A stretch of 64,000 nt of DNA from Candidatus Dormiibacterota bacterium (GTDB lineage Bacteria > Chloroflexota > Dormibacteria > Aeolococcales > Aeolococcaceae), in the NCBI GenBank assembly GCA_963709585.1, contig CAVPXI010000023.1, forward strand, positions 32,001-96,000, read 5' to 3'. The notes under the pieces were generated by a model. The model was not told the origin of the DNA, ran no database searches, and saw only the letters and a program-made list of their open reading frames with translations. A program made the translations under genes and the position numbers. Below are positions 33,062 to 54,609 of this stretch, piece after piece (position 1 is the first letter of the stretch; each line of letters opens with the position of its first letter).

Positions 33062-33065
33062 GAGT

Positions 33066-33102
<37 letters not shown>

Positions 33103-33594: not shown

Positions 33595-33711
33595 TCCGGT
33601 GATCATAGCGGTGGGGAAACACCTGTTCCCATCCCGAACACAGCAGTTAAGCCCACCAGCGCCGATGGTACTGCCCTGGCAACGGGGTGGGAGAGTAGGT
33701 CGTTGCCGGGT
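33595..33711 (+). rRNA. rrf: 5S rRNA
   Basis: CCCATCCCGAACAC, GCCGATGGTACT, GGGAGAGTAGG; flanking stem AGAGAGATA/TATCTCTCT. Confidence 0.96.
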
Positions 33712-33794
33712 ATCTCTCTTTTGTTTTCCGGGCTCTGAGGCGGATTTGTATATGAAACAGAGCAGGTAAGTGCTAAGGACATATAGCACGGCGC
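33703..33794 (+). repeat. att site 1: core overlapping 5S 3' end plus right arm
   Basis: Core TTGCCGGGTATCTCT 33703; motif A AAACAGAGCAGGTAAG 33755; motif B TAGCACGGCGC 33784. Confidence 0.85.
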
Positions 33795-33817
33795 TAAAAG
33801 AGTAGATAATAGCGGCG

Positions 33818-34734
33818 ATGCCGAAGCGCGCCGCCGCCCCGCAGCTCACCCTCGAGGGCGCCTGGCAGAGCTTTGACCGCTCCCTCCGAGCCGAGGGACG
33901 ATCGCCCGAAACCCGGCGCGCCTATGCCCAATCGGTCGCTCAGTTCGGGGCCTATCTGCGCGACCGGAGCCTGGCGTCCGAGGTGGCCCTGATCGACCGC
34001 GGTGACCTCGAGAACTGGATCATCACCCTCCTCGACTCCCGCAAGCCCGCCACCGCAGCCACCCGTCACCACGCCCTGGCTCGCCTGTTCTCGTGGCTGG
34101 TGGCCGAGGGCGAACTGGATCGCTCCCCGATGGAGCGGATGGAAGTGCCGAAGGTCCCCGAGAATCCTCCGACCGTGCTGAGCATCGAGGACATGCGGCG
34201 CATCCTGGCGGTGTGCAAGGGCACCGAGTTCGATGAGCGCCGCGACGCGGCTATCTTGCGCGTGCTGGTCGATACCGGCCTGCGCCTCGCCGAGCTCACC
34301 GGCCTGACCTTGGATGACGTCGACCTCGATGAGGGGTTGGCAACAGTCACCGGCAAGGGCGGCGCCGCCGTGCCGTGCCACTCGGCGCGAAGTCGACGGC
34401 CGCACTCGACCGATACCTCAGGGTCCGCCACGCCCACCCGCACCATCGCAGCTCGCACCTTTGGCTCGGCCAGAAAGGTCCGCTGACCGCGACCGGGATG
34501 CGCCAGGTGGTGCAGCGCCGGGCGCGTCAGGCAGGGTTGGATCAGCGCATCTGGCCGCATCTGTTCCGGCATACCGGCGCACATCAATGGCTCGCCGCGG
34601 GTGGCTCCGAGGGCGACCTGATGAGCCTCTATGGGTGGCGATCGAGCGCGATGCTGCGCCGCTACGGCTCGTCAGCGGCAGCCGAGCGCGCCCGCAAAGC
34701 GCACGCCGACCTCTCGTTGGGCGACCGGGTATGA
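33818..34734 (+). CDS. Tyrosine recombinase/integrase (frameshift near 34370)
   Basis: SAM-like N-terminus (RSPET.RAY), DTGLRLAEL, GKG, PHLFRH, YGW, RRYG catalytic residues across two frames. Confidence 0.9.
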
Positions 34735-35099
34735 CCGGGCTGCTCGCCGCCCGGATGGGCAAGGACGGCGCCGCGGTGCTCTGTGGCCAACCGACCTGTC
34801 CGTGCGAGATCGGGAGGATGATGGGCGCGCATCTAGTCGTGGCGCGCGGCCTGGTCGAGGTCCGCGATCCCCTCGGCAAACCGTATGACCCGCCGTGCTA
34901 CGCCCAGCCTCGCAGTGTCGTCAAGCGTGTCCGCCACGCCGTGATCGCGGGGACGAGACCGACATTGCGGCCCAGGGTGCAAGCCGCGACGCCCGCGTGG
35001 ACCGTGGACCGCGTGGTCTTCCTGCCACAGCACCCGGAAGTGTGGGTGAAGTGCCCACGCTGCGGGAACCAGAGCAGGGTCCGCCCACGAGGTACCTAG
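34731..35099 (+). CDS. Hypothetical Cys-rich protein of the element
   Basis: CGQPTC and KCPRCG; ATG overlaps the integrase stop. Confidence 0.55.
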   Translation: MTGLLAARMGKDGAAVLCGQPTCPCEIGRMMGAHLVVARGLVEVRDPLGKPYDPPCYAQPRSVVKRVRHAVIAGTRPTLRPRVQAATPAWTVDRVVFLPQHPEVWVKCPRCGNQSRVRPRGT

Positions 35100-35101
35100 T
35101 A

Positions 35102-35127
35102 AGCACGGCGAACAAGACGCCGTGCTA
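35102..35127. promoter_or_regulatory. Inverted pair of att motif B upstream of 35222
   Basis: AGCACGGCG-aacaaga-CGCCGTGCT(A). Confidence 0.6.
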
Positions 35128-35221
35128 GAGTACGTCCGTTCGTTATCAGTAGCGCCGGATCGTCGGCCTCTGCCCTTTGGCTTCCATCCCATCGCGGGAG
35201 TGAGCGGGGCGAGGTCACGGC

Positions 35222-35488
35222 ATGCCCCTCGATCCCGCTGCCCGAACGCTCCGAGCCCGCATTGGCGCTTTCGCCATGCACTCGAAACATCCCATCGAAG
35301 CGACAACTCGCGGCGGCCTGGACGCCGCCTGGCAACGCTTCGTTCTCGAGGTCGATCCGGACGGCTTACTGTCTGAGTCGGAGCGCACGCGGCGAGCCAA
35401 GGCTGCGCAGCGAGCTCATATGGCCAGGATCGCGCTTCGAAGTGTGCAAGCCCGACAGGCGGCGAAGTCTTCAGGAGAATCGGGGTGA
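35222..35488 (+). CDS. Small basic helical mobile-element protein (candidate RDF/regulator)
   Basis: RF..EVDPDG.L...ER.RRA..A.RAHM.R.AL.S pattern recalled from integrase-linked actinobacterial proteins. Confidence 0.6.
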   Translation: MPLDPAARTLRARIGAFAMHSKHPIEATTRGGLDAAWQRFVLEVDPDGLLSESERTRRAKAAQRAHMARIALRSVQARQAAKSSGESG

Positions 35489-37063
35489 TGGGCGAGGACC
35501 CTGCCAGGGGTCCCCTGCCCGACCACGACGACAACGCTGACGATAACACCGGCGCGGATGAGGCGTTGCTCGCGGCCGCGCAGCAAGTCATCGATAGGGG
35601 GTTAGATGTCGGTCCCAACCTCGCGGGGCTGACGCCCGAGGAACGGGCCAGCGCACTCGCGGCCTTCGCGCACGAGATCGTCCGGGTACCGCCTCCCCTC
35701 GCCGATGTGCTCGCGTCGACGTGCGAACTCCTGCGCCGCTACATCGTCCTACCTGCCGATCACTACTACCTGGTGGTCGCGCTCTGGATCCTGCACGCGC
35801 ACGCGATCACGGCAGCCGACACCACGCCGCGGCTGATCTTCAAGTCGCCCGAGAAGGAAAGCGGGAAAACCCGTTGCCTCGAGTGTCTCGACGCGCTGGT
35901 GCCGGCGCCGCTGCAGGTCATCAGCGTCACCACGGCCGCGATCTTCCGACTGCTCAAGGAGGAGCAGGTGACCGTGTTGTTTGACGAGGTGGACGCCATC
36001 TTCAATCCACGGGCGACCAACCAGGAGGATTTGAGGGCACTGTTGAACGCCGGGTATCGCCGCGGCGCGACGGTTGCTCGAAGTCGTCGGCGACGGTAAA
36101 CGGATGCGGGTCGAACGATTCCCGGTCTTTGCCGCCACCGCACTCGCCGCGATCGGCGATCTCCCCGACACGATCGAATCGCGGTCGATCATCGTCCCGA
36201 TGCGCCGGCGCGCACCCGATGAGACCGTGGCGAAGTTCCGTAGCCGCCAGGTCGCGCTCGAGGTCGTGGAATTGCGCGGCGACCTGGTCAACTGGGCATC
36301 GATTTATTCCGCGGAGCTCAGCAGAGCGGATCCTGTCATGCCGGACGGTCTTGAGGATCGGACCGAAGACTGCTGGGCGCCGCTGCTCGCCATCGCCGAC
36401 ATGGCCGGCGAGGAGTGGGGCGAGCGAGCCCGTGCAGCCGCACTGCTGATCGCCAAAGGTCGCGTCGCCGAGGATGCGTCCACAGGCGTCCGCCTGCTGG
36501 CCGATATCAAGACCGTCCTCGGCGACCGCGACCGCCTGTCCAGCGCCGGACTCTGCGCGATGCTCAACGCGCTCGAGGAATCGGGGTGGGGAGGATGGAA
36601 CGACGGCCGCGGCATCGGTCAACGTGACCTGGCGAAGCGGCTGAAGCGCTACTTCATTGAGTCGAAGAACATCAGGCTCGGTGACGGCTCGGTCCCGAAG
36701 GGTTACCTGCGCAGCGACTTTGACGATGCCTTCGCTCGCTACCTGCGCCTTCCTGCTCTTACAAGCGCTACAAGCGCTACAAGCGCTACGCAGGTTCGAA
36801 TTGACGTAGCGGACGTAGCGCCTGTAGCGGTTACTAGGGGAGAGAGAGAAGTCGGCCGGGAAGACGACGGTCACCCCACACAGGAGACATCCGCGACGCC
36901 GCTGGAGACGTTTCAACACCAGGTCGATGCAACGCTCACGAAGGTCAATGGACTGCAACCCGGCTGGCTTGAAGCCGATGATCAGCGCCGCCGCGAGTTG
37001 ATGGAGGCCGGCATGCGACACAAAGCGGAGCACAGTCGTCACACACATAGGAGGCACCCATGA
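35488..37063 (+). CDS. DUF3631-containing replication protein (frameshift near 36075)
   Basis: TPRL...SPEKESGKT Walker A, LFDEVD, LLNAGYRRG, GDLPDTIESRS, D.W.PLLAIAD.AGE.W, KGY.RSDF.DAF.RYL. Confidence 0.85.
36760..36830. repeat. Opposed 9-bp-period iteron arrays (candidate origin)
   Basis: CGCTAC x3 then GTAGCG x3, each with 9-bp periodicity. Confidence 0.6.
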
Positions 37064-37314
37064 CTGACAAGCCCCAGAGCCCCAGTATGTTCACCCCTGA
37101 AGCCGCTGTCGCGACTGCCATCGCTCAGCTCGTCGACGTCTCCAACGGGCTCGGACTGATGGTCACCCTCGGGCGACACCTGGAGACTTCGGCCGCCAAC
37201 ACCGATGACATGCTGGACGCTCGGACGTACGTGCGCCGCGTGCAGGAGGCGCTGGCACACTGCCACGAGGCCGCCGACGCACTGCGAACCCTACTGCCGG
37301 CCAAGCCCGCGTGA
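37060..37314 (+). CDS. Hypothetical protein of the element
   Basis: AGGAGG RBS; translationally coupled to neighbours. Confidence 0.6.
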   Translation: MTDKPQSPSMFTPEAAVATAIAQLVDVSNGLGLMVTLGRHLETSAANTDDMLDARTYVRRVQEALAHCHEAADALRTLLPAKPA

Positions 37315-37685
37315 GCATCATGCGTCCGTGCCTCGATTGCGGCGCGCCGTACGAACCGCGGCGTGGCGTAGCACGTTGCCCACAGCATCAGCGTGAGTAC
37401 CGACGCACCCGTGAAGCACCCCTTTCGACGGCCGCCTGGCGCGCGCTCCGCGCCCGCAAGCTCAAGCGCAACCCGATCTGTGAGGACTGCGGACGACAGT
37501 GGGCTGTCCAGGTTCAGCACATCGTCCCACGGTCGATGGGCGGCGCCCTGCTGCCACCGCTGTCGGGACTGCGCGCCCTGTGTGTTGCCTGCCATGCGGT
37601 CTGGACAAACCGAGAGCGTCGCTGGGGCTACCGGCCGCCGCCAACTGTAGTGAACGACGACGACGAAGGACCGCGCGTCGCATGA
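37311..37685 (+). CDS. HNH endonuclease (HK97 gp74-like terminase cofactor)
   Basis: CLDCG..RCPQH, W..LR...L..NPICEDC, HIVPRSMGG, LC.ACH; directly upstream of TerL. Confidence 0.85.
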   Translation: MSIMRPCLDCGAPYEPRRGVARCPQHQREYRRTREAPLSTAAWRALRARKLKRNPICEDCGRQWAVQVQHIVPRSMGGALLPPLSGLRALCVACHAVWTNRERRWGYRPPPTVVNDDDEGPRVA

Positions 37686-37850
37686 ACGCTGAGCATCGCA
37701 ACTCGCTTGAAAGCGCACAGCAAACCCCGAGGAATGGGGGGGCCAAATCCATCGCGTTTTTCCCTCCGGCGCGAACGCTGTTGGGCCACAATCCCGGTTA
37801 CACACTTTTCGCGATCGCAAAAGTCGTCGCACCAGGGGTGGGATGACCCC

Positions 37851-39302
37851 GTGAAAGCAGGCCCGAAAGCAGCCCCCACGGCCGAGCCGTTGACCTTTGA
37901 GGACCTTCCAGCGTCGGGTGGCGATCGGGTGGTTGCTTTCATCGAGCAGTACATCGTGCTGCCTCACGGGCGAGGGGCCAAGCGTCCGCTGGCGCTGCGT
38001 CCGTGGCAGCAGCGGATCATCCACGGCCTCTTTGACGAGCCGCGCCCGCGCCAGGGCCTGCTCAGCCTGCCACGTGGCAACGGCAAGACCACGCTCGCCG
38101 CGGCAATCGCTCTCTACGCCCTGTTTGGCGACGGCGAGGACTCGGCGCAAGTGCTCTGTGTAGCCTCGGATGAGCGCCAGGCCGCCATCCTATTTCGCAC
38201 TGCGCGGCGCATGATCGAGCTCGAGCCGCGACTGCTGGATCGCTGCCAGGTCTTCCAGGACCAGATTGTTGTGCCCTCCAGCGACGGGGTGCTTCGACCC
38301 TTGCCGGCTGAGAGCGCGGCCCTGCTGGGCTGGAATCCGAGCCTCTGTGTCGTCGACGAGTTGGCGGTCGTGACGGAGCGGGTGTGGGAGGCGGTGTCAG
38401 GCGCCGCCGGCAAGCGCGAGCGCAGTCTCACTCTGGCGATCTCCACCCCGCCCGAGAGCGTCGACAGCGTGATGTACGGCCTAGCCGAGCTTGGCCGCGA
38501 CGCTGACGACCCCAGTTTCTATTTCCAGGAGTTCTCCGCCCCCGCCGACTGCCTGATCGATGACGAGAGGGCGTGGGCAGTGGCTAACCCTGCGCTCGGC
38601 GATTTCCTGGCCATCGATGCGATGCGCAGCGTGCTGAGGACCATGCGTGAATCGACCTTTCGGCGCGCGCGTCTCGGTCAGTCGGTTTTTGGGAGCGAGA
38701 GTTGGATCAGCACCGAGCAGTGGAAGGCCGCGGCGGCCCCTGATCAGGAGATCCCTGAGGGCGCTGCGGTGTGTCTCGGCTTCGATGGATCCTTCTCCCG
38801 CGACGGGACTGCGCTGGTGGCCGTCTCTTGTGCGCGTCCGCACCACCTCCAGATAGTCGATCTCTGGGAGAAGACGTCCGACGACGGCCCGGCGTGGCGG
38901 GTGAGCACCGCCGATGTGGAGCAGGCGATCCGTGACGCCTGCACCACGTACCAGGTGCGGGCGATCGTGGCTGATCCGAGCTGGTGGGCGCAGACCATGC
39001 AAACGTTGGCGGGAGAGGGTCTTCCTGTGGTCGAGTTCCGGCCGAACTCGTCGCGGATGATTACCGCGAGCGAGAGATTCTACAAGGCGATTTGTGACGG
39101 CGACCTCAGCCACAGCGGCGAGCGCGACCTCACTCGCCACATCAGCAACGCGGTGCTACGGATGACGCCATCGGGACCGCGTGTCATGAAAGAGAGCAAG
39201 CAGAGTACCCGCCATGTTGACCTGGCCATCGCTGCGATCCTCGCGTACGACCAGGCGGCTCAGGTGGCACCCGAGCGCACGCCGCTGATCGCGTTCGTCT
39301 GA
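37851..39302 (+). CDS. Terminase large subunit
   Basis: LRPWQ, PRGNGKT Walker A, VVDE Walker B, ANPALG, GFDGS, D...W, VDLAIA. Confidence 0.92.
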   Translation: MKAGPKAAPTAEPLTFEDLPASGGDRVVAFIEQYIVLPHGRGAKRPLALRPWQQRIIHGLFDEPRPRQGLLSLPRGNGKTTLAAAIALYALFGDGEDSAQVLCVASDERQAAILFRTARRMIELEPRLLDRCQVFQDQIVVPSSDGVLRPLPAESAALLGWNPSLCVVDELAVVTERVWEAVSGAAGKRERSLTLAISTPPESVDSVMYGLAELGRDADDPSFYFQEFSAPADCLIDDERAWAVANPALGDFLAIDAMRSVLRTMRESTFRRARLGQSVFGSESWISTEQWKAAAAPDQEIPEGAAVCLGFDGSFSRDGTALVAVSCARPHHLQIVDLWEKTSDDGPAWRVSTADVEQAIRDACTTYQVRAIVADPSWWAQTMQTLAGEGLPVVEFRPNSSRMITASERFYKAICDGDLSHSGERDLTRHISNAVLRMTPSGPRVMKESKQSTRHVDLAIAAILAYDQAAQVAPERTPLIAFV

Positions 39303-39352
39303 CATTTCTTTTGTTCAACGCTCGTTGCCGAAAACCACGCAAAGGAGAACCG

Positions 39353-39670
39353 ATGACTGACCGGATCAACGACCCGACCAAGCCGGGCTATTCCTGGATT
39401 GAGGTCAATCACCATGTCGCCGACATGGAGCAGGGCATCGCCGCCATCGTCGATGTGCGATGCCTGTTCGTCGGCCAGGACGGCAAGGTCGTCAACACGC
39501 CGGGAGTCGGCTTCCGGCTCGCCGACGCGGAAGCGCTTGCGGCTGACATTGTCGCCCACGCGCACGCGGCGTACCTCGAGGCCAGAGCTGCCGGCGGCGA
39601 CATGGAGGCCATCGAAGCGCTCGAGGAGGAAGCGCAGGGCTATGACGACGAGCGCAATTCTCGAAATTGA
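39353..39670 (+). CDS. Hypothetical acidic protein (homolog at 43602)
   Basis: AAGGAG RBS; C-terminal AYLEARAAGGDMEAIEAL. Confidence 0.65.
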   Translation: MTDRINDPTKPGYSWIEVNHHVADMEQGIAAIVDVRCLFVGQDGKVVNTPGVGFRLADAEALAADIVAHAHAAYLEARAAGGDMEAIEALEEEAQGYDDERNSRN

Positions 39671-39855
39671 GGTGATACGATCAATTCACGCTCCCGCGCT
39701 CACTGCTGAATGGCACTGAGCAGCCGCAAATCCGACAGCGTGTCGGTTTTGGGGGTAGGGACCGAAGGCGATACGCGCCGAGGCTGGCTGTGCCACCCGC
39801 GGAAGTAGCTGAACGGGCCGCGAAAGGCTCAATTTCAACGACTTCAACGGGAGGC

Positions 39856-41331
39856 ATGAAAATGCCACGAGCACTCGCCGAGATTCGGCAAGAACAGACA
39901 CAACTGCGTGCGCGCGTCGGCCAACTGGTCGATGAGGCGCGCGAAATCGAAATCAAGCTCGAGGTCGACGGCGCCAACGACGGGCTCGAGGAGCGCAAAG
40001 CCAACGTGGAGCGCGGCAAGGCCAAGGCCAGCGCGCGACTGCAGGAGGTGGGCGCCGAGTACAGCGCGGCGATAACACGGATGGTCGAGAACGGCCAGAC
40101 GCAGACCGAGGCCGGCGTCAGCCTGGAGAACGCCTACACAGAGCGTCAGGACGACGACAGGACCGCGTCCATGGCGCCGCACCAGCGCCAGGCGGTCTCG
40201 GACGCCATGCGCGCCCTCGAGCGCCATCAGCGCGACGGTGTGCTGTTCACCACGGCGGCGGAGCGCATGGAGAATGTGGTTCGTCACGGTGACCCTACCG
40301 GCAGCACTGGGCGGTACATCGCCGCGGTGGGCGCGGACGCCTATGCGCGCGCGTTTGTCAAGCTGCTGACGTACGGCGACACGGCTGTGCTGCGCATGAC
40401 CTCTGAGGAACAGCAAGCCATGCAGCGCGTCAGCCAGGCCGAGTCCGAGCGCGCGATGTCCGACGGCACCACCACCGCCGGCGGATTCGGAATCCCGCTG
40501 ACAATTGATCCGACGATCAATTTGACGTCGTCGGGCGCGTTGTGTCCGGTCCGCGAGGTTGCGGACGTGCGCCAGATCGCCACCAACGAATTGCGCCTGG
40601 TGAGCGCTGACACGCCTGCGTCGGCATATGCAGCGGAATTGACCGAAGTGGCTGACGGCAGCCCGACTTTGGCGCAGCCGATCGCGGTCACCCAAAAAGG
40701 GCAGTCGTTTGTTCCATTTTCGATCGAGGTTGGGGCTGACTACCCTGGCCTGCAGAACGAGCTGCTCAAATTGCTCGCGGACGGTCGGGCGATATTGGAC
40801 AGTACGAAGATGCTTTCCGGCCTAGCAAGCGCCAACGAGCCGGTAGGCATCCTCGCCTCGACCGGCGGATTGACGACGTCGCAGCGCGTGCAAACGGCCG
40901 TTACTGGCACATTTGGCATCTCCGACGCGTACGCATTGCGAGAAGGCCTCGCCGCCACGCGGTTCTTTCAAAATGCGGTCTTTATGGCCCATCCGACCAC
41001 CATGGATGCGGCGTATCGACTGGTCGGCGGTGGGTCGACCACCGAGCCGCTGCCCATGCCTCAAGGCCGGAGCGGCCCGTTCGTCGGCACTCCGCAGTAC
41101 GGCTGGAATGCGATGGCAACCGGCACCACCACCGGTACCAAGATCCTCATCCTCGGCGACTGGAGCGGATACGTCGTCGCCGACAGGATTGGAGCTCAGG
41201 TTGAACTGGTGAGCCACCTGTTTGGAAGCGCGTCAAGGTTCCCAATCGGAGCTCGCGGGCTCTACTTCTACTGGCGCACGGGGACGTGTGTCCTGAAACC
41301 GAACGCATTTAGATATTTGGAAATGCGGTAA
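39856..41331 (+). CDS. Major capsid protein, HK97 fold with N-terminal coiled-coil delta domain
   Basis: GGFGIP..IDP, EVADGSPTLAQP, VPFSIE, LGDWS, NAFR; resembles phiRv1/phiRv2 capsids. Confidence 0.92.
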   Translation: MKMPRALAEIRQEQTQLRARVGQLVDEAREIEIKLEVDGANDGLEERKANVERGKAKASARLQEVGAEYSAAITRMVENGQTQTEAGVSLENAYTERQDDDRTASMAPHQRQAVSDAMRALERHQRDGVLFTTAAERMENVVRHGDPTGSTGRYIAAVGADAYARAFVKLLTYGDTAVLRMTSEEQQAMQRVSQAESERAMSDGTTTAGGFGIPLTIDPTINLTSSGALCPVREVADVRQIATNELRLVSADTPASAYAAELTEVADGSPTLAQPIAVTQKGQSFVPFSIEVGADYPGLQNELLKLLADGRAILDSTKMLSGLASANEPVGILASTGGLTTSQRVQTAVTGTFGISDAYALREGLAATRFFQNAVFMAHPTTMDAAYRLVGGGSTTEPLPMPQGRSGPFVGTPQYGWNAMATGTTTGTKILILGDWSGYVVADRIGAQVELVSHLFGSASRFPIGARGLYFYWRTGTCVLKPNAFRYLEMR

Positions 41332-41333
41332 CC

Positions 41334-42168
41334 ATGGCCGGACAGAGTCGCACCCTACGGGGACGTCGACTATGCAGATCCAGGTCTCCAAGCCGACAAG
41401 GTCAAGCGCTATCCGATCGATACCAAGGCGCACGCGAAGGCCGCGTGGACGCTCATCAACATGAGCTCGCACGCCTCGCAGTATTCGGCTGCGGACCTCG
41501 CGCTGGTCAAGGGCAGGATCCTGACGGCGTGTCATCACTTCGACGTCGAGGTGAGCGAGAACGCCCTGCCGCGCGAGGGGTTGATCCGGGCGCTCTCGGG
41601 CCTGGAGATCCGCGACGATGGCGGCGCGGATGGCAGTCCGGGGACATTGACCGGATACCTCGCGGTGTTCAATCAATGGAGCGAAATCAACTCGGCCCAC
41701 GAAGGTCACTTCATGGAGCGGATGGCGCCGGGATCGTTCGCCCGGACCATCGCTGACAACGCGTCACGCATGAAGGTCACCTTCAATCACGGTAAGGATC
41801 CGCAGTTGGGCGACAAGGTGCTGGGCATCCCCACCGTCCTCGAGGAGGACAGCCGCGGAGTGCGCTATGAGGTGCCGCTGTTCGACACATCATGGAATCG
41901 CGACCTTGCTCCCGGATTGAAGGCCGGCGCCTACGGCTCCAGCTTCCGGTTCAACGTGGCCGCCGACGACTACAACAAGAAGGCCAGGGTCGCTCCGCAC
42001 AACCCCAGAGGCTTGCCGGAGAGGACGGTCAAGGAAGTCCGCATGCAGGAGTTCGGCCCGGTCACCTTCCCCGCATACCCGGGCGCGACCGCGGGGATGC
42101 GCTCGCTGACGTCGCCCGCGCGCGGTCAATCCGTGTTCGAGGAGTTCCTACAGCTGATCGGAGGCTGA
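41334..42168 (+). CDS. HK97 prohead protease with N-terminal DUF6582-like domain (1-nt indel near start)
   Basis: PYGDVDYADPG..KRYPIDT..HA.AAW then LTGYLAVFN, FNHG, GSSFRF, EFGPVTFPAY. Confidence 0.85.
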
Positions 42169-42334
42169 GCGTCGTGAAGGCGGTGTCCGTCGGTTTCGTT
42201 CACTCCGGGCCGCGGCACCGTCTTCACGGCGCCAACCATGGGGGCGGTTGCGTCGGTTCGAAGGGCACACCCACTCCGGCCGACGCGCCGCCTTCCCGTC
42301 GACGAAGGCCGGCGCTGACGGCTACCATGCGGCG

Positions 42335-42583
42335 GTGAGCGATGCCCCTGACGATGAGATCGAGATCGGCTGGGAGAGCTATGGACCTGGCGATAAGCCT
42401 CGCGACCTGACGTTCACGTTCAGGGAGCGCGGCGTCCATCTCGGGTCGCGCGAGGTGGAGTGCGACGGAGATCGATACTTCATCGTGACGCGTCCCGACG
42501 GGAGCGTCCAGCGGTACCGCCAGAACCCGGAGTCAGGCAAGCTCGAAAAGGTCGACGAGATCCCCTGCGGTGATCCGGAGTGA
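42335..42583 (+). CDS. Hypothetical small protein, last gene of the satellite
   Basis: ORF stops 5 bp before att arm motif A. Confidence 0.45.
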   Translation: MSDAPDDEIEIGWESYGPGDKPRDLTFTFRERGVHLGSREVECDGDRYFIVTRPDGSVQRYRQNPESGKLEKVDEIPCGDPE

Positions 42584-42588
42584 GTAGC

Positions 42589-42764
42589 AAACAGAGCAGA
42601 TAATTCGGCCTCGCTCGCTCATGACACGCAAGATGCGAACGTCGTCATAGCACGGCGTACAGTCCCGGATACTTGCCGGGTATCTCTTTCTTGTTTACCG
42701 GCCCCTCGCGCGGTTTGGTATTCAAAACAGAGCAGGTAAGTGCTCGAGCCCCATAGCACGGCGC
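42589..42764 (+). repeat. att site 2: left arm + core + right arm
   Basis: A 42589, B 42648, core 42673, A 42725, B 42754. Confidence 0.88.
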
Positions 42765-42937
42765 GTTCGTGCCGGCGACATCTGGCGAAGCCTGCCCGGG
42801 ACGCAGCAGTGGATCCAGTTGGTGTCGGTGTGGAACCATCAACCGCCGAGCTCGAGGGCGGATGGCGCCGAGTACCAGGTGGCCGCGTCATCCCGCCGCA
42901 CAACTCCGGGCTCACAGTCAGAGTTGATTGGGCGCCG

Positions 42938-43528
42938 TCAGCGAGCGTGCCAACCAGGTCCTTGCGCCCCGGTCGCGGAGACGGACTCTTGCCGCCGCTC
43001 GAGCTTGTCTTTGACGTTCCCGATTTGCCCACATCGTTGGCATTCGGTCACAGTCTCGATCAGATCGTAGTCCTGTTTGACCGCTTCCAATGTCGGACGA
43101 TGCGTAGACGAGCGCTGGTGCCAATCATGACCAAACACCTCGCAGCGCAACCGGAAAGGACTCCACCGCCCTCTCTCATATCGCGTCCGGAAAGGTTTGG
43201 GTGTTGCCAAAGTGACCGGGGCTGCCGTTGTCTCGCTGAGGAACGTTTGCAGATCGTTTGTATGACGGCGGATCTGCAGCCGAATGACTGTCGCGCTGCC
43301 AATGACGCCTGCGTAGACAAGCAATGTCCACCAGGGGGAAATAAAGAGGCTAGCGACGACGAGAACGAGCCCAATTCCCCCGACGAGGAGTCCGTCGAAT
43401 GTGTCTCGGATCTTCGCGACGCGGGGAAAGGGGGGGCGGTAGTCGGGCAGAAAGTACCAGCCGAGACCGCCCAGCACGAGTACCCATCCGAAGAGCGTCA
43501 CAGCCCACCAGGGGATCGTTCCAAGCAT
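42938..43528 (-). CDS. Hypothetical membrane protein with C-terminal Cys/His motifs
   Basis: Three hydrophobic segments, then LRCEVFGHDW...CQRCG; start uncertain. Confidence 0.45.
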   Translation of the reverse strand: MLGTIPWWAVTLFGWVLVLGGLGWYFLPDYRPPFPRVAKIRDTFDGLLVGGIGLVLVVASLFISPWWTLLVYAGVIGSATVIRLQIRRHTNDLQTFLSETTAAPVTLATPKPFRTRYERGRWSPFRLRCEVFGHDWHQRSSTHRPTLEAVKQDYDLIETVTECQRCGQIGNVKDKLERRQESVSATGAQGPGWHAR

Positions 43529-43601
43529 GCGTTGGACTTTAAGCCTGCCGAAACCGATCTGCGAAAGACGTTGGAGCCCTTGTAACAAGGAGAACGAGCC
43601 C

Positions 43602-43925
43602 ATGACCGACGAAATTGACGAGATCACCAACCGCCCCGGCAGACCCCTGAGCACGCTGGAAGTCATCGGGCGGCAGGACCCGGAGCCCGCCGTGGTGCTC
43701 ATCCTGCGATTCAACCGTGGGGATGGCGTCATCGACACGATCAGGCTGGCCCACAGCCCGGAAGAGGCGCGCCGCCTGTCCGACTATCTGTTGGGGACCG
43801 CGGATGCGGTACACCTCGAGGCACTGGCCGACGCTGGCGATGCGGAGGCCGCGGAGCTGCTCGCCGAACTGAAGAGGCAGCTCGACGAGCGCGATCCGAT
43901 TCCCGAGTGGTACGCGGATCTGTAA
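43602..43925 (+). CDS. Hypothetical protein homologous to satellite gene 39353
   Basis: AAGGAGAAC RBS; MTDEID..RPG start and VHLEALADAGDAEAAELL. Confidence 0.65.
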   Translation: MTDEIDEITNRPGRPLSTLEVIGRQDPEPAVVLILRFNRGDGVIDTIRLAHSPEEARRLSDYLLGTADAVHLEALADAGDAEAAELLAELKRQLDERDPIPEWYADL

Positions 43926-43982
43926 GCGCGATGAGGCACGGGTCACAAAGGCAAGCGGACAGTGTTGGGCTAGGCTTGCGCG

Positions 43983-44612
43983 ATGGCCCTGTCGGTGCGG
44001 ACCGTCATCCCTTTCTATCGGCTCGGGTTCGGCCTACTCGTGCTCGTGGCCATCCTTATACAGATGGTGTCGCTCGGCCAGTCGGGTGTCCTCGACCCGC
44101 TGCATTACCTCACCTACTTCACCAACCTCAGCAACATGATCGCGGCCGTCGTATTTATCGTTGGCGCGACGGGCTGGCGCTATGTGCGGTCACCCGCCTT
44201 CGACGTGGTGAGGGGCGGTGCGGTCGTGTACATGACCATCACGGGCGTCGTCTTTGCAGTCCTTTTGAGCGGTGTCAATGTCGATGCCCAACTGCGATGG
44301 GTCAACGATCTCATCCACCAGGTGTTTCCAATTGTTGTCCTTGCTGATTGGTTGCTCGACCCGCCCAAGGCACGGGTGACGCTCAGGCAAGGGGTGCTGT
44401 GGCTGACTTTCCCGGTCGCCTGGGCGGCATACGAACTGATCCGCGGAGCGACCTCGGGGAAGTATCACTATCCGTTCCTGAATCCGGTCAACGGCGGGTA
44501 CGGAAGCGTCGCCCTCTACGTGGTCGTGATCTCCGTATTCACGCTCATTGTCTCCGGAGTTGTCGTGTGGCTCGCAAACGCTCGGAGGCACCTCGAGCAC
44601 GAGCCCGCATAG
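43983..44612 (+). CDS. Pr6Pr / FAR-17a-AIG1-like integral membrane protein
   Basis: YFTNLSN, YMTITGVVF.VLL, H.V.P....DWL, YPFLNP. Confidence 0.8.
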   Translation: MALSVRTVIPFYRLGFGLLVLVAILIQMVSLGQSGVLDPLHYLTYFTNLSNMIAAVVFIVGATGWRYVRSPAFDVVRGGAVVYMTITGVVFAVLLSGVNVDAQLRWVNDLIHQVFPIVVLADWLLDPPKARVTLRQGVLWLTFPVAWAAYELIRGATSGKYHYPFLNPVNGGYGSVALYVVVISVFTLIVSGVVVWLANARRHLEHEPA

Positions 44613-45044
44613 GAGAAACTCCCGGCCACATCTCCGGACGCTAAGAGAGAGCGCCGAACGATCCCGTGCTAAGATGAGCCTACGATCCGCGTACCGCTGC
44701 TGAGCTGCACCGGACAGACGCCCGCGGCGGTGAGGACCGAAGGCTGCAAGCGCCGAGGCTGGAACGTCCACCCGCGGAAGTCATGTGAACGCCGCATTGG
44801 CGGCGACTTCGACGACTTTACCTCGAAATCAAGTTGGACATCGACGGCGCAGACGCCGGCCTCGAGGAGTGGGAATCGCGCCCTTCAGCGGAGGACGGTC
44901 CGCGCCCGACATTCAACGGTCCGGCCGGTATTCCTTCCCGACCTACTCGACGCGCGATCGGACGTGAGTTACGCTACGCACCTTTGGAGCTGGCGTCGTG
45001 GGGACGTTTAGCTGCGGAGAGCGTTCGACGCCTTTGGCGCGGCT

Positions 45045-45070
45045 GTAACCGCTGATGACTTGCTCCCGTT
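45045..45070 (+). promoter_or_regulatory. Putative ECF-sigma promoter GTAAC-17-CGTT
   Basis: Same motif and flanks at 59667-59692 (-) and 61238-61263 (-). Confidence 0.6.
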
Positions 45071-45085
45071 GACCGGGTAGCCGCC

Positions 45086-45814
45086 ATGAAACTCACCAAC
45101 GTCATCGGCACTGTGATCGCCGCGTTGAGCCTCGCGGCTGGTGGATCGACAGTCGCGCCGACTGTTTCTCCAACTTCCGCGCTAACTGTCGGGGCAACCG
45201 TAGCGCCGACTCCCAGCGCAACGCCCACCGCGACACCCACGCCAACTCCGATCGCCACGCCCACTCCGTCTGCAAGGCCTACGCCCGCACCGCCTGTGCT
45301 CGTGCTCGTCGAAACGTGCGATGGCTCCGCAAACGCTGACAACTATGGCAGCGTGACGTTCTCTGGTGACACACCCGGCTTCGACTTCGTAGTGTACGGT
45401 CCTGGGCGATTGGGTGGATGGGCAGGGGCAACGACAGCAGATGCAAGTGGCGACGGAACAGTCAGCGACCTTACTGCTGATGACTATGAGTTCAACAACT
45501 TCGCACCCGCCGATATGCCGGGAACACTCACCGGCTCGTTCGCCATCGTGGCGTGCCCGCCGACGCCCACGTATAGCGTCACACAGACATGCGCCGCCCC
45601 TGGTAGTGCTCAGGGCGGGAGCGTGATGATTACCTTCGCAGGTGGCACGCCTGACACCGTTGTTATTGACGGCAATACCGTGGACGTGACCGGCAACCCG
45701 TTCACCTATGGGCCCCTCACCGTGGGCGATCACAGGATCACCGTTGAAGGTTTCGTCTGGCCAGTCACCATTACCGCGTGCGTATCTACGCCGCACTTGA
45801 CCGTCACAGTCTGA
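45086..45814 (+). CDS. Secreted PT-linker protein with Cys-bounded beta modules (probably continues to ~46003 via frameshift)
   Basis: Signal peptide paralogous to 59569 and 61141 lipoproteins; TPTP linker. Confidence 0.65.
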   Translation: MKLTNVIGTVIAALSLAAGGSTVAPTVSPTSALTVGATVAPTPSATPTATPTPTPIATPTPSARPTPAPPVLVLVETCDGSANADNYGSVTFSGDTPGFDFVVYGPGRLGGWAGATTADASGDGTVSDLTADDYEFNNFAPADMPGTLTGSFAIVACPPTPTYSVTQTCAAPGSAQGGSVMITFAGGTPDTVVIDGNTVDVTGNPFTYGPLTVGDHRITVEGFVWPVTITACVSTPHLTVTV

Positions 45815-45989
45815 CGGTGCTCCGGGCCGCGTGGCATGGACCGGCACCAAGACGGGTGACACACTCTTTATCGGCGCCGGCGCGTTTTCCGTCACTCTTC
45901 CGACTGGCACCGGTGGCACGTCTGGACCACTCCCAGCTGGGACGTTCGACACCGAGAGTGGCAGCGGCACGTCAGCGCTCGGCGGCCCA

Positions 45990-46092
45990 AAACACAGTAG
46001 ATAATTCACCCACCGACGCTCGAGACACTCGAGATCGGAAAGCCGAGGTAGCACAGCGCTAAACCCGTGGATGGTTGCCGGGTATCTCTCTT
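45990..46092 (+). repeat. att site 3: left arm + core, no recognisable right arm
   Basis: A 45990, B 46049, core 46075. Confidence 0.82.
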
Positions 46093-46129
46093 TTTTACTC
46101 CACGCCGAGGACTGGAACGTCGACTGCAC

Positions 46130-46444
46130 GGTCGACGGGATGACGTTCCCGAGGAGGAGTTACCGGACGTGACTGACGCTGCGCACGCTGTGGTCCAGGA
46201 GGCCAAAGACGCCGGCGTGTTTGTGTTCGCCGGCGGACTGCAGGACCACCAGGAAGCGAGCGTCGTGGCCATCGACGGGACGATCACCGACGGCCCGTAC
46301 CCGGAGAGCAAGCAGTTCCTCGGCGGATTCACAGTCGTCGACGTGCCCTCACGCGCCGAGGCGCTGGAGTGGGCTGCCAAGCTCGCGGTCGCCTGCCGAT
46401 GTGCTCAAGAGGTTCGCGAGATCCTGTTCGACCCGACCGTCTGA
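46130..46444 (+). pseudogene. YciI/DGPF-family gene, 5'-truncated
   Basis: EAKDAGVFVFAGGL, TDGPYPESKQFLGGF, EALEWAAKLA.ACRC.QEVRE; normal N-terminus missing. Confidence 0.7.
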
Positions 46445-46500
46445 TCGCAGACCCTCAAGCGGATCAACGATCCCGCCGCCCTCCAAGACAACTGATCCTC

Positions 46501-46676
46501 AAACACAGCAGATAAGTGGGAGCCGTACGCTCGACCCACCCAGGATCAGAGTAGCCGAGGGCACAGCGCTAAACGCCTGGATGGTTGCCGGGTATCTCTC
46601 TCTTGTTTTCCGGCCTCTGGCGCTGTTCTGTATTCGAAACCGAGCAGGTAAGCGCTCAGGCGACATAGCACGGCGC
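46501..46676 (+). repeat. att site 4: left arm + core + right arm
   Basis: A 46501, B ~46560, core 46585, A 46637, B 46666. Confidence 0.88.
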
Positions 46677-46728
46677 CAAGCGAGGCGACCCCCCCAACGC
46701 TCCACATCGATCTGAGAGATTAGGCGCG

Positions 46729-47724
46729 ATGCTCAGATACATCGTCAGCCGCGTCCTGCAGGCGGTGCTGGTCGTCATCGGCGTCGCGACAGTGGTGTTC
46801 TTCCTCGAGCGTCTGATGCCCGGCGACCCGGGAAGGATCATGCTGGGACCGCGCCTCGGCCCGGCCCAGTGGGCGATCTACGACCATCAGAACGGGTTCG
46901 ACCAGCCGATCCCGGTCCAGTACATCGACTTCCTCGCGAATCTTTTCCACGGGAGGATCGCCTTCACGCCGCCGGGATTCGCCGACCAGATCGACCCCTT
47001 CGAGGGTGGCGTGGTCGACGTCGATCTCCAGTCGCTGGTTAAGGGACCGATGATCAACTCGCTGATCCTGACTGGTCTGTCGACACTGTTGGTGATAGCC
47101 CTCACCATCCCCATCGCCCTCTACGAAGCGGCACGGCGGCGCCGGCGTGGAGCGCACCTCTCAAACATCATCTCGATGACGCTGTACTCGATCCCGCCGT
47201 ACCTACTGGGCACGTGGCTCATCCTGGTTCTTGCGACGGATCTGAACTGGATCAATCTGAATACGCCGAATTGGAGCACGGGCGATGTACTCGCCGATCC
47301 GGCGGCGCTGATTCTCCCCACGCTGACCCTGTCAACGGGAACGGTCGCGCTGTTCACCCGCTATCTCCGGGCGTCGACGATCGATGAGCTGACCAAGGAC
47401 TACATCACAACGGCGCGAGCCAAGGGCGCCTCCCGCTCCCGAGTCAGCCTGCGCCATGCGCTCCCCAACGCTTCGTTACCGATCATCACCCTGCTCGGCA
47501 CGCGCCTTCCCCAGATCTTCGGTGCCCAGCTCGTCGTGGAGGTGCTTTTTGGATATCCGGGGCTGGGAACCACGCTGTGGAGCGCAGCGATGAATCACGA
47601 CTTCTACTCCATGCTGGGAGCAATCCTGATCGCTGGCGTTCTCACCACTCTCGGCTCGCTGATCACCGACTTGATCTACGCGGCGGTCGATCCTCGTATC
47701 CGATATGTCCATGCTCGGAGCTGA
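46729..47724 (+). CDS. Orphan DppB/OppB-type ABC transporter permease
   Basis: MPGDP, DYITTARAKG (EAA loop), HALPNA, VEVLFGYPGLG, DLIYAAVDPRIRY. Confidence 0.92.
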   Translation: MLRYIVSRVLQAVLVVIGVATVVFFLERLMPGDPGRIMLGPRLGPAQWAIYDHQNGFDQPIPVQYIDFLANLFHGRIAFTPPGFADQIDPFEGGVVDVDLQSLVKGPMINSLILTGLSTLLVIALTIPIALYEAARRRRRGAHLSNIISMTLYSIPPYLLGTWLILVLATDLNWINLNTPNWSTGDVLADPAALILPTLTLSTGTVALFTRYLRASTIDELTKDYITTARAKGASRSRVSLRHALPNASLPIITLLGTRLPQIFGAQLVVEVLFGYPGLGTTLWSAAMNHDFYSMLGAILIAGVLTTLGSLITDLIYAAVDPRIRYVHARS

Positions 47725-47736
47725 TTCGCGCGCCCC

Positions 47737-47910
47737 AAAGACAGCAGATAATTCGGGCTCGCTCGCTAAGGACATGCAAGATACATAGCGTGCGATAGCA
47801 CGGCGCATAGTCCCGTATGCTTGCCGGTATCTCTCTTGTTTTCCTGGCAGCAACCGAGCTTGCGTTGTCGAAACTGAGTAGATAACTGACTCAGCGTCGA
47901 TCGCACACCG
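47737..47910 (+). repeat. att site 5: left arm + core (one G missing) + diverged right arm
   Basis: A 47737, B 47796, core TTGCCGGTATCTCT 47821, A AAACTGAGTAGATAAC 47871. Confidence 0.8.
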
Positions 47911-48061
47911 CTTGGGGAGTTGGTAACCACGCGTTGCTGCCTCCGACGGCTCTACGAGGGGCGGCGGGGCACCCGTAACCAGGGCGGCCATCGCTCGGTT
48001 CCCTCCGTGCAACCCGATCGTCTGACGACCCTCTGTACTGGCCTGAGGGAAAGGAGCACGG

Positions 48062-48960
48062 ATGAGATCCGCAGTCTTCGCTGGAGCCATCTTTGCAACG
48101 GTGCTCGCGTCAGGCTGTGCGAGCACCCCTGGCACAAACCTCGGCTCGCCGTCAGCGAGCGCCCGGGCGACCCAGCCGTCGTCGACGGCGCCATCAACCA
48201 CGCCAACCCCCGGCACACCGTCGTCGACCTGCTCGAAGGCGACGCCGCTCGATGCCGCAGTGGTGCTGACGGATTGGACGCATGCGCCGGGCTACACCGT
48301 GAACCTCGTGGCTGCAAACGGCTGCGTCATCGCATCGGCCACCGCCCGCACCTGGTCTGGATACTCGGCCACGGCCGGTCAGCCCGTCAGTCTGCCGACG
48401 AGCGAGTCCGCCACGCGCGTGTATTTCCTCGACGGCGATTCGACGCTGCGGTTTCTCGGCCTGGACGGCAGCAAAGGTGTCGCAGCCCAACTGCCCGGAT
48501 CCTCGAGCAGCAAGGTTGCGTTCAGTGTGAGTCCCGACAACACCCGCCTTGCCTTCTCGGTGATGAGTTGGGGTTCGGATGAGCGCCATTTCACGGAGCA
48601 GTCGTATGTCGAGGACCTCGCGACGGGCGCAGATCGCACGGAGCTCTTCACCCTGACTGGCGGCAATGTTGCAGAGGAGCCGATTGGATGGATAAACGGT
48701 GACATCGTGTTCGGCCTGCTGCTCTCGGCCAACCAATACGCTGCGGGTCCAACTCCGCCGATATTCGACGCCTACCACGTAGCGAACCCGCTCACCGGTA
48801 AGCGCCTGACCAGCATCTGCGCCGGGTCCGGCAACGCCTGGGTCTTCGACGGCGGTGACTACACGACACTGCCGACGAGGACAGCAGTGCTCTGTCGAGT
48901 CGGAGAGCAGTACCAGCCGGACGGAACCCTCGAGCTAGTTTCCTGGTCGGGAAGCCGGCG
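48062..48960 (+). CDS. Lipoprotein with beta-propeller-like region (3' end replaced)
   Basis: LASGC lipobox, VYFLDG, FSVSPD; paralog of 58373-59569. Confidence 0.65.
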
Positions 48961-48965
48961 ACCAT

Positions 48966-49313
48966 GTGAGCGTGTCGATTACCCGCGGTTCGAATGGCTG
49001 GACCATCACGGTGAAGGATCCCCGGTCGGGCACATTCACGACCGTAAAGGCCTACTCAGGCCCGGGTACCTCGGCGGAGTGGATCCAGGAGGCTCCCACC
49101 GTCGGCGGCCGCATCGCCACGCTTGCCAGATACGGCGAGGCGACCTTCGACCCGGGGACGGCGAATGGGAAGTCACCCGGCCTGGTCAGCAGCGATGGCG
49201 GAGTGATGGTCCAGAAGAGCATCCAGGTCTCGACACCTTCGGTGCCGGACAAGGACTTTGACGGGTTCAACATCAAGTACGCCAGCACCGCGCCGGCGGC
49301 TCCGTCGAGCTGA
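48966..49313 (+). pseudogene. G1 family glutamic peptidase C-terminal fragment
   Basis: SAEWIQEAP catalytic-Glu motif; no N-terminal half. Confidence 0.7.
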
Positions 49314-53690: not shown

Positions 53691-54308
53691 GTGGCAGATC
53701 TCGATAGAGATCCGGACCAGTCGCCTCGAAAGAAGGACCATTGGCAGGTGGACGTCGACGATCGATTTCGCCAGATGCTCATCGATGCCGGCGACGCCGA
53801 GCGCGACGAGGACTCGCTCACCACGCTGGCGCAGCGCTACTCGTACGTCTTTCCCGATGACCGATCCCTCGCAGCGCTCGCCCGCCTCGGTCCGCTCGTC
53901 GAAATGGGCGCCGGTACCGGGTACTGGGCGTACCGGTTGCGCGCTCTCGGGACCGACGTCGTCGCATTCGACCAGGCGCCGCCGGATGGAGCGCGTCCGA
54001 ACCGCTACCACGCGACGACACCAACGTGGACCGAGGTCGTCGCCGGAGACCACACCATCCTGACGCGATACTCCGATCGGGCACTGCTGCTCTGCTGGCC
54101 GCCGCTCTTTTCGAGTCTCGGCGAGTCGCTGACCTACTACAGCGGGAATACCGTTGCGGTGATTGGGGACGGCGGCCATCGAACCGCGCGCGTGCGCGGC
54201 CTGAACGAGTCGTTCACACCGGTTTCGGTGTCCGAGGTGCAGGCGCTCGAGCCGTTCCCGGGACAGCAGCCCACGCTCAGCATCTGGCGGCGCCGGCCGA
54301 CGTCGTGA
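53691..54308 (+). CDS. SAM-dependent methyltransferase-like protein
   Basis: LVEMGAGTGYWA, VVAFD, LLLCWPP. Confidence 0.7.
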   Translation: MADLDRDPDQSPRKKDHWQVDVDDRFRQMLIDAGDAERDEDSLTTLAQRYSYVFPDDRSLAALARLGPLVEMGAGTGYWAYRLRALGTDVVAFDQAPPDGARPNRYHATTPTWTEVVAGDHTILTRYSDRALLLCWPPLFSSLGESLTYYSGNTVAVIGDGGHRTARVRGLNESFTPVSVSEVQALEPFPGQQPTLSIWRRRPTS

Positions 54309-54324
54309 CGTTGTGCCGCCGCCC

Positions 54325-54552
54325 TCAGGTGGTGGGGCCTGGGCGCGGCACCACGGCAAGGCCGGCAGTTAGCACCACGATGCAGGCCAGGATCAGGGGC
54401 CAGTAACCGCCGATCGTCGTTTCGAGGTCGTGGGCCGCTTCGTGCGGGCCGCGCACCAGCCCGATCAGCACGGAGATCGAGAGGGCGACGATGATCACGA
54501 TCGTCACCGCCACGACCAGTGAAAAGAACAGCCGGCTGATTCCCCGTCGCAC
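54325..54552 (-). CDS. Small two-TM membrane protein
   Basis: Two hydrophobic helices. Confidence 0.5.
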   Translation of the reverse strand: MRRGISRLFFSLVVAVTIVIIVALSISVLIGLVRGPHEAAHDLETTIGGYWPLILACIVVLTAGLAVVPRPGPTT

Positions 54553-54609
54553 TACGACCCGCGAGGTTACAGGAGCTAGCCGACCTACTGCGGGCCGCGC
54601 CCGACGCGA

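Follow-up and report, generated by a model that had tools for sequence, protein, structure and literature searches.

A tandem array of candidate attachment-site-bounded units behind the single 5S rRNA gene of an uncultured Dormibacteria bacterium

The DNA behind a 5S rRNA gene in Candidatus Dormiibacterota contains several copies of the end of that gene, and the question is how they arose and whether they mark a route of gene exchange. The stretch considered here, called the window, comprises 64,000 nt of contig CAVPXI010000023.1 (assembly GCA_963709585.1), and all coordinates are positions within it. The assembly is a metagenome-assembled genome of an uncultured soil or sediment bacterium (24 contigs, 3.52 Mb); the window contains one rRNA operon, and its 5S gene is the only one in the whole assembly. 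The original prediction described an integron-like tandem cassette array anchored on the 3' end of this gene and built by an rRNA-targeting integrase. We consider it probable that the array arose by tandem accretion of integrative elements, and of integrase-less derivatives bounded by attachment (att) sites, at a new target, the 5S gene.

The comparison included 161 genomes of the order, 117 genomes of the family, 20 loci fetched from relatives, metagenome contigs and public sequencing runs, the latter available as contigs only. The relatives share kinship and hence are not independent, many of the genomes are 60-90% complete, and genes in the relatives' loci were called with a simple GC3-based script. 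The census of cores over the order counts the unpublished genomes G005 and G060, and that of integrases counts the unpublished G004.

Core repeats, units and the empty site

The 15-nt core TTGCCGGGTATCTCT consists, at its first occurrence, of the final 9 nt of the 5S gene and 6 nt of trailer. Exact matches start at 33703, 42673, 46075 and 46585, that is, four in the window against 0.06 expected, a number reached in none of 100 shuffles. A fifth copy at 47821 (47821-47834) is one base short; contigs of four public runs have G for C at 47825, and there too the fifth core is 14 nt long. All five positions, including the short one, had been listed in the original prediction and are reproduced by matching in the window.

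Two motifs flank the cores. Motif A (AAACAGAGCAGATAA) has 10 matches with at most two mismatches in the window (0.06 expected), all of them within or next to the units. It occurs 84-85 nt before cores 2-5 (42589, 45990, 46501 and 47737) and 50-52 nt after cores 1, 2, 4 and 5 (33755, 42725, 46637 and 47871); the further A-like sites are A' at 33795 and one at 33636 inside the 5S gene. Motif B (TAGCACGGCGC) is found at -25/-26 (42648, 46049, 47796) and +81 (33784, 42754, 46666) relative to the core. The near-invariant offsets claimed for both motifs hold at these sites; they do not extend to the junction at 46075, where the downstream A-B pair is missing, or to that at 46585, where the upstream motif B is degenerate. 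The A-like 15-mer inside the 5S gene (33636-33650, 2 mismatches) lies 67 nt before the core, as compared with 84-85 nt in the arms. A scan with the A-B-core-A-B pattern had been proposed as a check: searches of the whole assembly with profiles built from the left arms (90-95 nt preceding the core) and the right arms (~95 nt after it) gave no match outside the array locus, and the core has no further occurrence in its 24 contigs.

The cores delimit four units of 8970, 3402, 510 and 1236 nt. The integrase gene is present in unit 1 only, and units 2-4 are att-bounded and integrase-less; Pfam matches and mapping of the junctions agree here with the original description of an integrase in the first unit and cargo alone in the next ones. 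Core 5 is followed by d399, a gene for a 399-aa protein.

An empty form of the site was found among metagenome contigs scanned for the end of the left arm plus the core (20 rows, 19 distinct loci). The 2725-nt contig L082 has the order 5S gene, core, YCII gene, left arm/core/right arm, permease gene, left arm/core/right arm, d399, and lacks units 1 and 2. The proteins are 94% (YCII), 98% (permease) and 91% (d399) identical to those of the window; the nucleotide identity is 100% over 33611-33722 (112 nt) and 95% over 46133-48488 (an alignment of 2368 nt). The sequence directly after the L082 core is that after core 3 (46075), with 97% identity over 67 nt. Thus the two sides of the L082 site match the outer sides of attL and attR, as is characteristic of an integrative element. 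On this sequence comparison L082 is the attB form, and the window has an insertion of 12,372 nt (units 1 and 2) with the 20-nt direct repeat TTGCCGGGTATCTCTCTTTT at its borders. The junction at 46075 is attR of units 1 and 2, which accounts for the right arm missing there. The empty 5S site whose detection had been suggested as a check does exist, since L082 leads from the 5S core straight into the YCII flank, and the claim that the 5S 3' end is a point of site-specific insertion is strengthened by an attB form in a 95%-identical contig.

Independent runs support part of the array as assembled. Long contigs of run X1 that differ from the window at 0-5 positions span 42673-53300, so X1 contains this strain. 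Junction 4 is bridged by contigs of X1, X2 and X5 and by L082, and junction 5 by contigs of X1 and X4 and by L082. If the array were an assembly artefact, a chimeric join via the repeats, then the whole of it or at least unit 1 would not be as drawn. Single-base indels relative to the public-run contigs are in line with such an error, as is the fact that the ends of unit 1 (junctions 1 and 2) are bridged by no independent contig listed. Against it stand the independent bridging of junctions 4 and 5, arrays of the same grammar in 12 genomes, including that of G101 in a single-contig 3.3-Mb assembly, and the same adjacency of 5S gene and integrase in G044, a genome of another genus of the family. 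We regard an artefact as the least credible of the explanations considered here, with hardly any weight left to it.

The runs also contain joints that skip parts of the array. In one contig of X1, with a depth of 17.6 and a shorter side of 32 nt, position 33726 at the 5S end is joined to 42647, at the last 26 nt before core 2, so that unit 1 is skipped; in another the match starts exactly at 42673, and 15 extra letters do not fit the left arm of unit 1. This is weak evidence for an X1 population with unit 2 and without unit 1. The read-derived joints have short sides (21-32 nt) and 90% likeness and may come from other strains. The depth of unit 1 (34064-42695) is 0-4.8 in four runs and that of 42696-53300 is 11-21 in X1; missing cover alone is no evidence. 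The joints 33720>46622, 46096>46614 and 42696>47868, with sides of 21-26 nt and extra letters between them, most likely come from arrays of other strains, because the arms have fixed offsets relative to the cores, so that skips of core-to-core length arise by construction.

The integrase and the junctions

The integrase gene starts 101 nt after core 1 and is frameshifted as assembled, with one frame from 33818 to ~34378 and another at 34381-34733. Aligned against eight homologues, the two pieces together account for the full length of 305 aa. The near-invariant residues R156, H248, R251, W274 and Y283 (R, HxxR, W, Y) are all present in them; the catalytic lysine is near the frameshift and outside the comparison. 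Pfam identifies Phage_integrase (PF00589) and a SAM-like domain, which together characterise a tyrosine recombinase. The SAM-like domain already begins at residue 18, which leaves no separate domain for arm binding, and Pfam recognised no N-terminal domain of this kind. Among NCBIfam models the protein is nearest to XerC and XerD, with 135 bits against a cut-off of 335 and 130 bits against 330. These sub-threshold scores, together with a clade found in only 13 of the 117 family genomes, set it apart from the housekeeping XerC/XerD. The integron-integrase models score 53 bits against a cut-off of 265 (TIGR02249) and 30 against 435 (NF011946). The label "lambda-type" in the original prediction is not borne out, since the protein is Xer-like and no arm-binding N-domain can be recognised in it.

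A 323-nt contig of X1, which differs from the window at 7 positions, contains one more C behind 34359, a point at which neither frame is closed, and this base would yield one continuous integrase frame. Other single-base indels relative to the public-run contigs were found at 33563 and 52073 (all four runs) and at 50276 and 51807 (three runs). Taken together, these differences mean that the frameshift may be an assembly error. Indels such as those at 33563, 34359, 50276, 51807 and 52073 are typical of assembly errors, and apparent frameshifts in the window call for caution.

With the intact G044 protein as query (E<=1e-30), members of the clade were found in the 13 family genomes mentioned above. 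Two of them lie behind a 5S gene: the window copy and that of G044, an intact 305-aa homologue with 52-67% identity. The G044 element is an 8.2-kb unit with the variant core TTGCCGAGTATCTCT at both ends, and it encodes the integrase, a DUF3631 protein and a resolvase; the integrase and DUF3631 genes form a module common to this element and unit 1. At five of the eight other homologue loci fetched a tRNA gene (Gly-ccc, Gln, Gly-tcc, Thr, Phe) lies just upstream in the same orientation; the remaining three have no RNA gene in the stretch examined, and one of these begins at a contig end. At three of the five loci (G069, G032, G084) the spacer between tRNA and integrase genes contains a pair of direct repeats with GATAA(Y) at their ends; 7-8 nt separate the second one from the start codon. 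This is the A/A' pattern of the window in lineage-specific sequence. These tRNA-adjacent and 5S-adjacent members point to a clade of integrases of RNA-gene ends, two of which would use 5S, and motif A behaves like the arm repeat of the clade. A homologue scan with a single protein returned four loci, none of them informative on 5S apart from G044. No empty site for G044 was found in its own genus, where G040 has another attR-type junction and G039 a right-arm-like trailer. In G022 (L062, ~5330-5400) the spacer between tRNA-Phe and integrase contains a copy of a tRNA-Gln 3' half identical to the tRNA-Gln of G032, a possible sign that tRNA targets in this clade occur in tandem or have been switched.

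The left arms were aligned at 22 non-5S junctions from 11 genomes, and 19 were retained for the fold test. The left arm, whose blocks are conserved over these 19 (11 genomes, three genera), consists of motif A, ~14 variable nt, CGCTC, variable nt, GAGAT, variable nt and motif B, followed by TCCCGGATGC and the core. No consensus fold was obtained for the 19 arms with RNAalifold (-0.3 and -1.1 kcal on the two strands), so the junctions are sequence motifs and not attC-like hairpins; attC-like folding of the arms was rejected on this result. The right arm consists of a T-tract, a short hairpin of variable sequence, TTTGTAT, motif A, motif B and A'. Motifs A and B may be arm sites bound by a protein. 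The A' site of unit 1 terminates in GATAAT, 7 nt ahead of the ATG of the integrase gene, and may double as a -10 box. No sigma-70 consensus promoter was found in the arms (14.8 kb scanned; the sole site is elsewhere). Relics of 5S genes were considered as a source of the left arms and rejected: there is no Rfam 5S match in 42400-48100 even at E<=10, and a hidden Markov model of the left arm matched only the core of 5S genes, with a best full-length match of E 0.23 (L038).

The last 9 nt of the arm, together with CCGGG of the core, can fold into a 5-bp stem (loop of 7 nt) with the T-rich TATCTCTCTTTTGTTTT behind it. The full five pairs are present in 32 of the 44 non-5S junctions and at least four in 39. 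One could therefore take the repeats for functional trailer modules, terminators combined with promoter or regulatory sequences, that were copied behind genes with the integrase as a bystander. The 32 stems with their T-rich tails are what such modules would contain, one of these sites was flagged as terminator-like by a simple scan, and A' resembles a -10 box close to the integrase start. Yet the repeats are confined to the DNA behind 5S, with none elsewhere in 3.5 Mb, units are present or absent with the core as the exact boundary, and integrases of the same clade lie at RNA-gene ends elsewhere beside similar arm repeats. A purely regulatory origin is thus very improbable, and it fits the data poorly, as does an artefact.

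Arrays in related genomes and the proposed mode of insertion

The core, with at most one mismatch, is present in 72 of the 161 genomes of the order, and in 12 of them two to five copies lie on one contig. Eleven of the 19 metagenome loci have two or three cores. At the 20 loci compared, the first core is within the 5S gene and has no left arm, internal junctions have both arms, and the last junctions usually have the left arm and core only. Core-to-core distances range from 510 to 8970 nt, and the distance from 5S to the conserved flank is 2.6 to 20 kb across genomes. The cargo of the relatives, on either strand, includes genes for TetR, a methyltransferase, a GMC oxidoreductase, a glyoxalase, ArsR/DsrE and large NTPases and phosphatases. 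A comparison of the content downstream of 5S across relatives had been suggested, with identical gene order as the outcome that would count against the array; it revealed different content and different numbers of units. In L084 and L087 three cores ~0.8 kb apart lie behind a 5S gene 92% identical to that of the window, with very small cassettes. One unit of the G069 array, 7.4 kb long (L037, 8713-15741), encodes a DUF4062-cyclase-AAA-TPR protein of 1068 aa, a TCAD9/phosphatase protein of 782 aa and a ferritin-like protein; it has the appearance of a cassette-borne conflict or defence system.

The same modules occupy different ranks in different genomes. The YCII gene takes first place in L082, G090 and G115, second place in G114 and G105 and third place in the window; for d399 the rank is first (G110, G080), third (L082) or fifth (the window), and for a 2-kb TetR module first (G097, G105) or second (G101). 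Identities of the TetR module among G101, G097 and G105 are 92-96%, compared with 66-77% for the conserved flanks. The glyoxalase modules of G080 and G098 are 92% identical (flanks 68%), and the d399 modules of G110 and G080 91%. The homology between G110 and G080, and between G097 and G105, ends ~30 nt after the closing core. Taken together, cassettes differ at the same chromosomal position and direct repeats of the end of the anchor gene accompany them, as in additive genomic islands.

The main rival to accretion by integrases explains this pattern by homologous recombination. The repeats would be fossil att scars, the present variation would follow from recombination after DNA uptake, with the 5S gene, the arms and the tRNA-Leu flank as anchors, and the cassettes would not be mobilised site-specifically. 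The arms supply 80-100 nt of homology (anchors of 100-180 nt), and the integrase clade is rare, being found in only two of the 12 genome arrays and at none of the 19 metagenome loci. The modules also occur without flanking cores, for instance TetR in G098 and the methyltransferase in G097, so other recombination also shapes the region. However, the arm motifs and their spacing are kept over unrelated cargo in three genera, the attB/attL/attR triplet is exact to the 20-nt repeat, the homology between genomes stops within ~30 nt of the core and not within the arms, and the arm repeats match the pattern beside the tRNA-linked homologues. We therefore consider fossil scars unlikely, although less so than the other two alternatives.

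The rarity of the clade and the modules without cores weigh also against accretion by site-specific insertion as such, and further observations point the same way. Of the arrays in 12 genomes, nine lack a tyrosine recombinase of any sort, the clade copy of G069 lies at a tRNA gene on a contig other than that of the array, and the array of G101 has an unrelated 350-aa tyrosine recombinase with 28% identity to the clade. Neither an excised circle nor a free attP was found, and contigs cannot show rare circles; the left-arm plus core pattern has 0 matches in viral contigs. Unit 5 (after core 5, with d399) has no detectable closing arm or core, and the arm profiles detect no further decayed arms in 48-53.7 kb at E<=1. 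The frameshift, the unrecognised arm-binding domain, the unbridged ends of unit 1 and the short sides of the read-derived joints belong here as well. The G101 recombinase (L035, oriented 7630-8682) lies in the first unit of a five-core array, its 5' end abutting a typical left arm and core, and a second recombinase lineage may use the 5S site in this genome.

With accretion by integrases as the probable explanation, the following course of events can be proposed. The extreme 3' end of the sole 5S gene would be the attB of Xer-like tyrosine integrases that are short (~305 aa) and belong to a clade whose other members use the 3' ends of tRNA genes, and strands would be exchanged within the 20-nt repeat TTGCCGGGTATCTCTCTTTT. 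The incoming element would carry a copy of the core between a left (P) arm of ~85 nt, composed of A, CGCTC, GAGAT, B and a 5-bp stem pairing with the core CCGGG, and a right (P') arm of ~95 nt. The T-tract and hairpin of the right arm would re-supply the terminator after 5S, each unit being closed by a hairpin and T-tract. Insertion would occur at the 5S-proximal core, so that the 5S gene is left undamaged; earlier units would be displaced away from it and would be separated by attP-like composite junctions. Within the window the stack of YCII, permease and d399 would be the oldest, followed by unit 2, and unit 1 (9 kb, with integrase, DUF3631 and phage-head genes) would have been the last to arrive. 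The integrase-less units would be moved in trans by such an integrase, like cis-mobilisable elements (CIMEs). The original prediction of an rRNA-targeting integrase that builds the array is supported in part, by the attB form, by the integrase abutting 5S here and in G044 and by the variable arrays; movement of units in trans is the part that we infer, from the conserved arms, the exact boundaries and the spread of small units between species.

A broader possibility, which we put forward tentatively and think somewhat less likely to hold than to fail, is a second, non-integron route to chromosomal cassette arrays, in which small double-stranded arm-core-arm cassettes are inserted in trans, always 5S-proximally, by an Xer-like integrase borne by a phage-like satellite. 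If so, a terminator and perhaps a promoter would be built into the cassette arms, and the sole 5S gene would be a gene-exchange dock common to several soil species. The locus combines an integrase, a 20-nt crossover repeat with conserved arms, and natural empty, partly filled and filled states of the site, and thus makes integron-like capture from ordinary att sites directly testable. Modules that are 91-96% identical in species with ~70% identical flanks mark the site as an active path for the exchange of genes in this uncultured lineage of soil bacteria.

Contents of the array and known systems

The features of the locus are listed in Table 1. Judged from its genes, unit 1 is probably a phage-satellite-like element or a decayed small prophage. 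We read the DUF3631 protein as possibly associated with replication. Family searches recognised no portal or tail genes in unit 1, and none of nine small or unassigned ORFs examined for an excisionase has a Pfam match at E<=0.1, two weak DUF matches aside. A fragment of unit 2 (44726-44869) is paralogous to the 5' part of the unit 1 capsid gene (39751-39993), with 79-83% identity, and unit 2 has kept both arms; we read it as a probable decayed relative of unit 1.

Table 1. Coordinates of the 5S-anchored array and of neighbouring features in the window
Feature	Position	Strand	Remarks
16S rRNA	26205-27718		Rfam; followed by tRNA-Ile and tRNA-Ala
23S rRNA	29191-33431		
5S rRNA gene	33595..33711	+	Rfam RF00001, 107 bits; last gene of the rRNA operon
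Core 1 (attL)	33703..33717	+	direct repeat common to attL, attR and attB is 20 nt, 33703-33722
Unit 1 right (P') arm	33718..33809	+	T-tract, weak hairpin, TTTGTAT, A 33755, B 33784, A' 33795
Xer-like tyrosine integrase	33818..34733	+	~305 aa, two frames; Pfam, NCBIfam, alignment
DUF3631 protein	36074..37063	+	Pfam, 2.3e-52
HNH endonuclease	37311-37685	+	unit 1
Large terminase	37707-39302	+	PHROG 9, 3.5e-97; 32-35% identity to Streptomyces phage terminases
HK97-type capsid	39790-41331	+	unit 1
S78 prohead protease	41461-42168	+	unit 1
Junction 2	42589..42766	+	attP-like: unit 1 left (P) arm 42589-42672, core 2 42673-42687, unit 2 right arm
Unit 2 cargo	42767..45988	+	ORFs without family matches and a capsid-gene fragment
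Junction 3 (attR of units 1 and 2)	45989..46089	+	unit 2 left arm and core 3; no right arm
Unit 3, YCII-domain gene module	46090..46500	+	ORF 46067-46444; unit of 510 nt
Junction 4	46501..46689	+	left arm, core 4 (46585-46599), right arm
Unit 4, lone ABC-transporter permease	46729..47724	+	Pfam BPD_transp_1, 1.2e-34
Junction 5	47737..47927	+	left arm, core 5 (47821-47834, one base short), right arm
d399, 399-aa gene	48062..49261	+	weak DUF3558 match
Conserved genus flank	53757..55297	+	ends in tRNA-Leu(gag) 55211-55297; far border of the variable region

Two further observations concern the surroundings of the array. The rRNA operon contains Rfam matches to group I introns at 27662-28444, overlapping the final ~57 nt of the 16S match and extending 0.7 kb past it, and at 31936-32155, inside the 23S gene, whose match is 4241 nt long against a model of 2925 nt. 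Synteny within the genus (~53757-55298) breaks off directly after tRNA-Leu(gag) (region 55211-55400), which suggests that this tRNA gene anchors a second variable region.

Tyrosine integrases use the 3' ends of tRNA and tmRNA genes, and integrative elements at RNA-gene ends stack by tandem accretion, leaving integrase-less CIMEs beside integrative and conjugative elements (ICEs) as well as integrative mobilisable elements (IMEs). The array resembles these systems in the integrase gene beside an RNA gene and in the direct repeat of the gene's 3' end that bounds tandem units, some of them without integrase, as well as in the position of the integrase's nearest relatives at tRNA genes. It differs in the 5S target, the many single-gene units of 0.5-2 kb, the full conserved arms of ~180 nt at the junctions and the short Xer-like integrase. 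The structure of units 2-4, with arms and cores like those of unit 1 and no integrase, fits that of CIMEs as far as sequence can tell. Unit 1 is a candidate capsid-forming phage satellite of the kind of phage-inducible chromosomal islands: it has 9 kb, an integrase, a DUF3631 protein, head and packaging genes and no recognised tail. No description of a prokaryotic 5S-targeting integrase or of a 5S-anchored cassette array was found in the full-text collection searched, from which subscription journals are largely absent.

With integrons the array shares expansion by small units, apparent insertion next to the anchor and the fact that most units have no recombinase. It has no IntI-type integrase and no folded attC, its integrase lies in a mobile unit and not on a fixed platform, and the cargo of the relatives is on either strand. 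The array is not an integron: three defining features were looked for and not found. The term "integron-like" of the original prediction survives as a functional analogy only, given the lack of a conserved fold, the score of 53 against 265 bits and an integrase inside a mobile unit that is absent from the attB form. Integrative mobile elements exploiting Xer recombination (IMEX) at dif and the pdif modules of Acinetobacter plasmids have in common with it the Xer-like chemistry, tandem stacking and modules without recombinase; here, in contrast, the site is not dif, the integrase is borne by the element and scores far below the XerC/XerD cut-offs, and the arms are long.

A further parallel is offered by additive flexible genomic islands, which passages of PMC7771536, citing Rodriguez-Valera et al. 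2016, describe as gene cassettes added at tRNA genes with a partial repeat of the tRNA left behind. The likeness consists in a hot spot at an RNA gene, cassettes that differ among close relatives and direct repeats that mark recent insertions, and the difference in the 5S anchor, in junctions that are complete att sites including their arms, and in the presence on the spot of an integrase from the matching clade. The kind of array is itself known; what is new is that 5S is the target, that single-gene units with full conserved arms lie so densely, and that the integrase is found in place.

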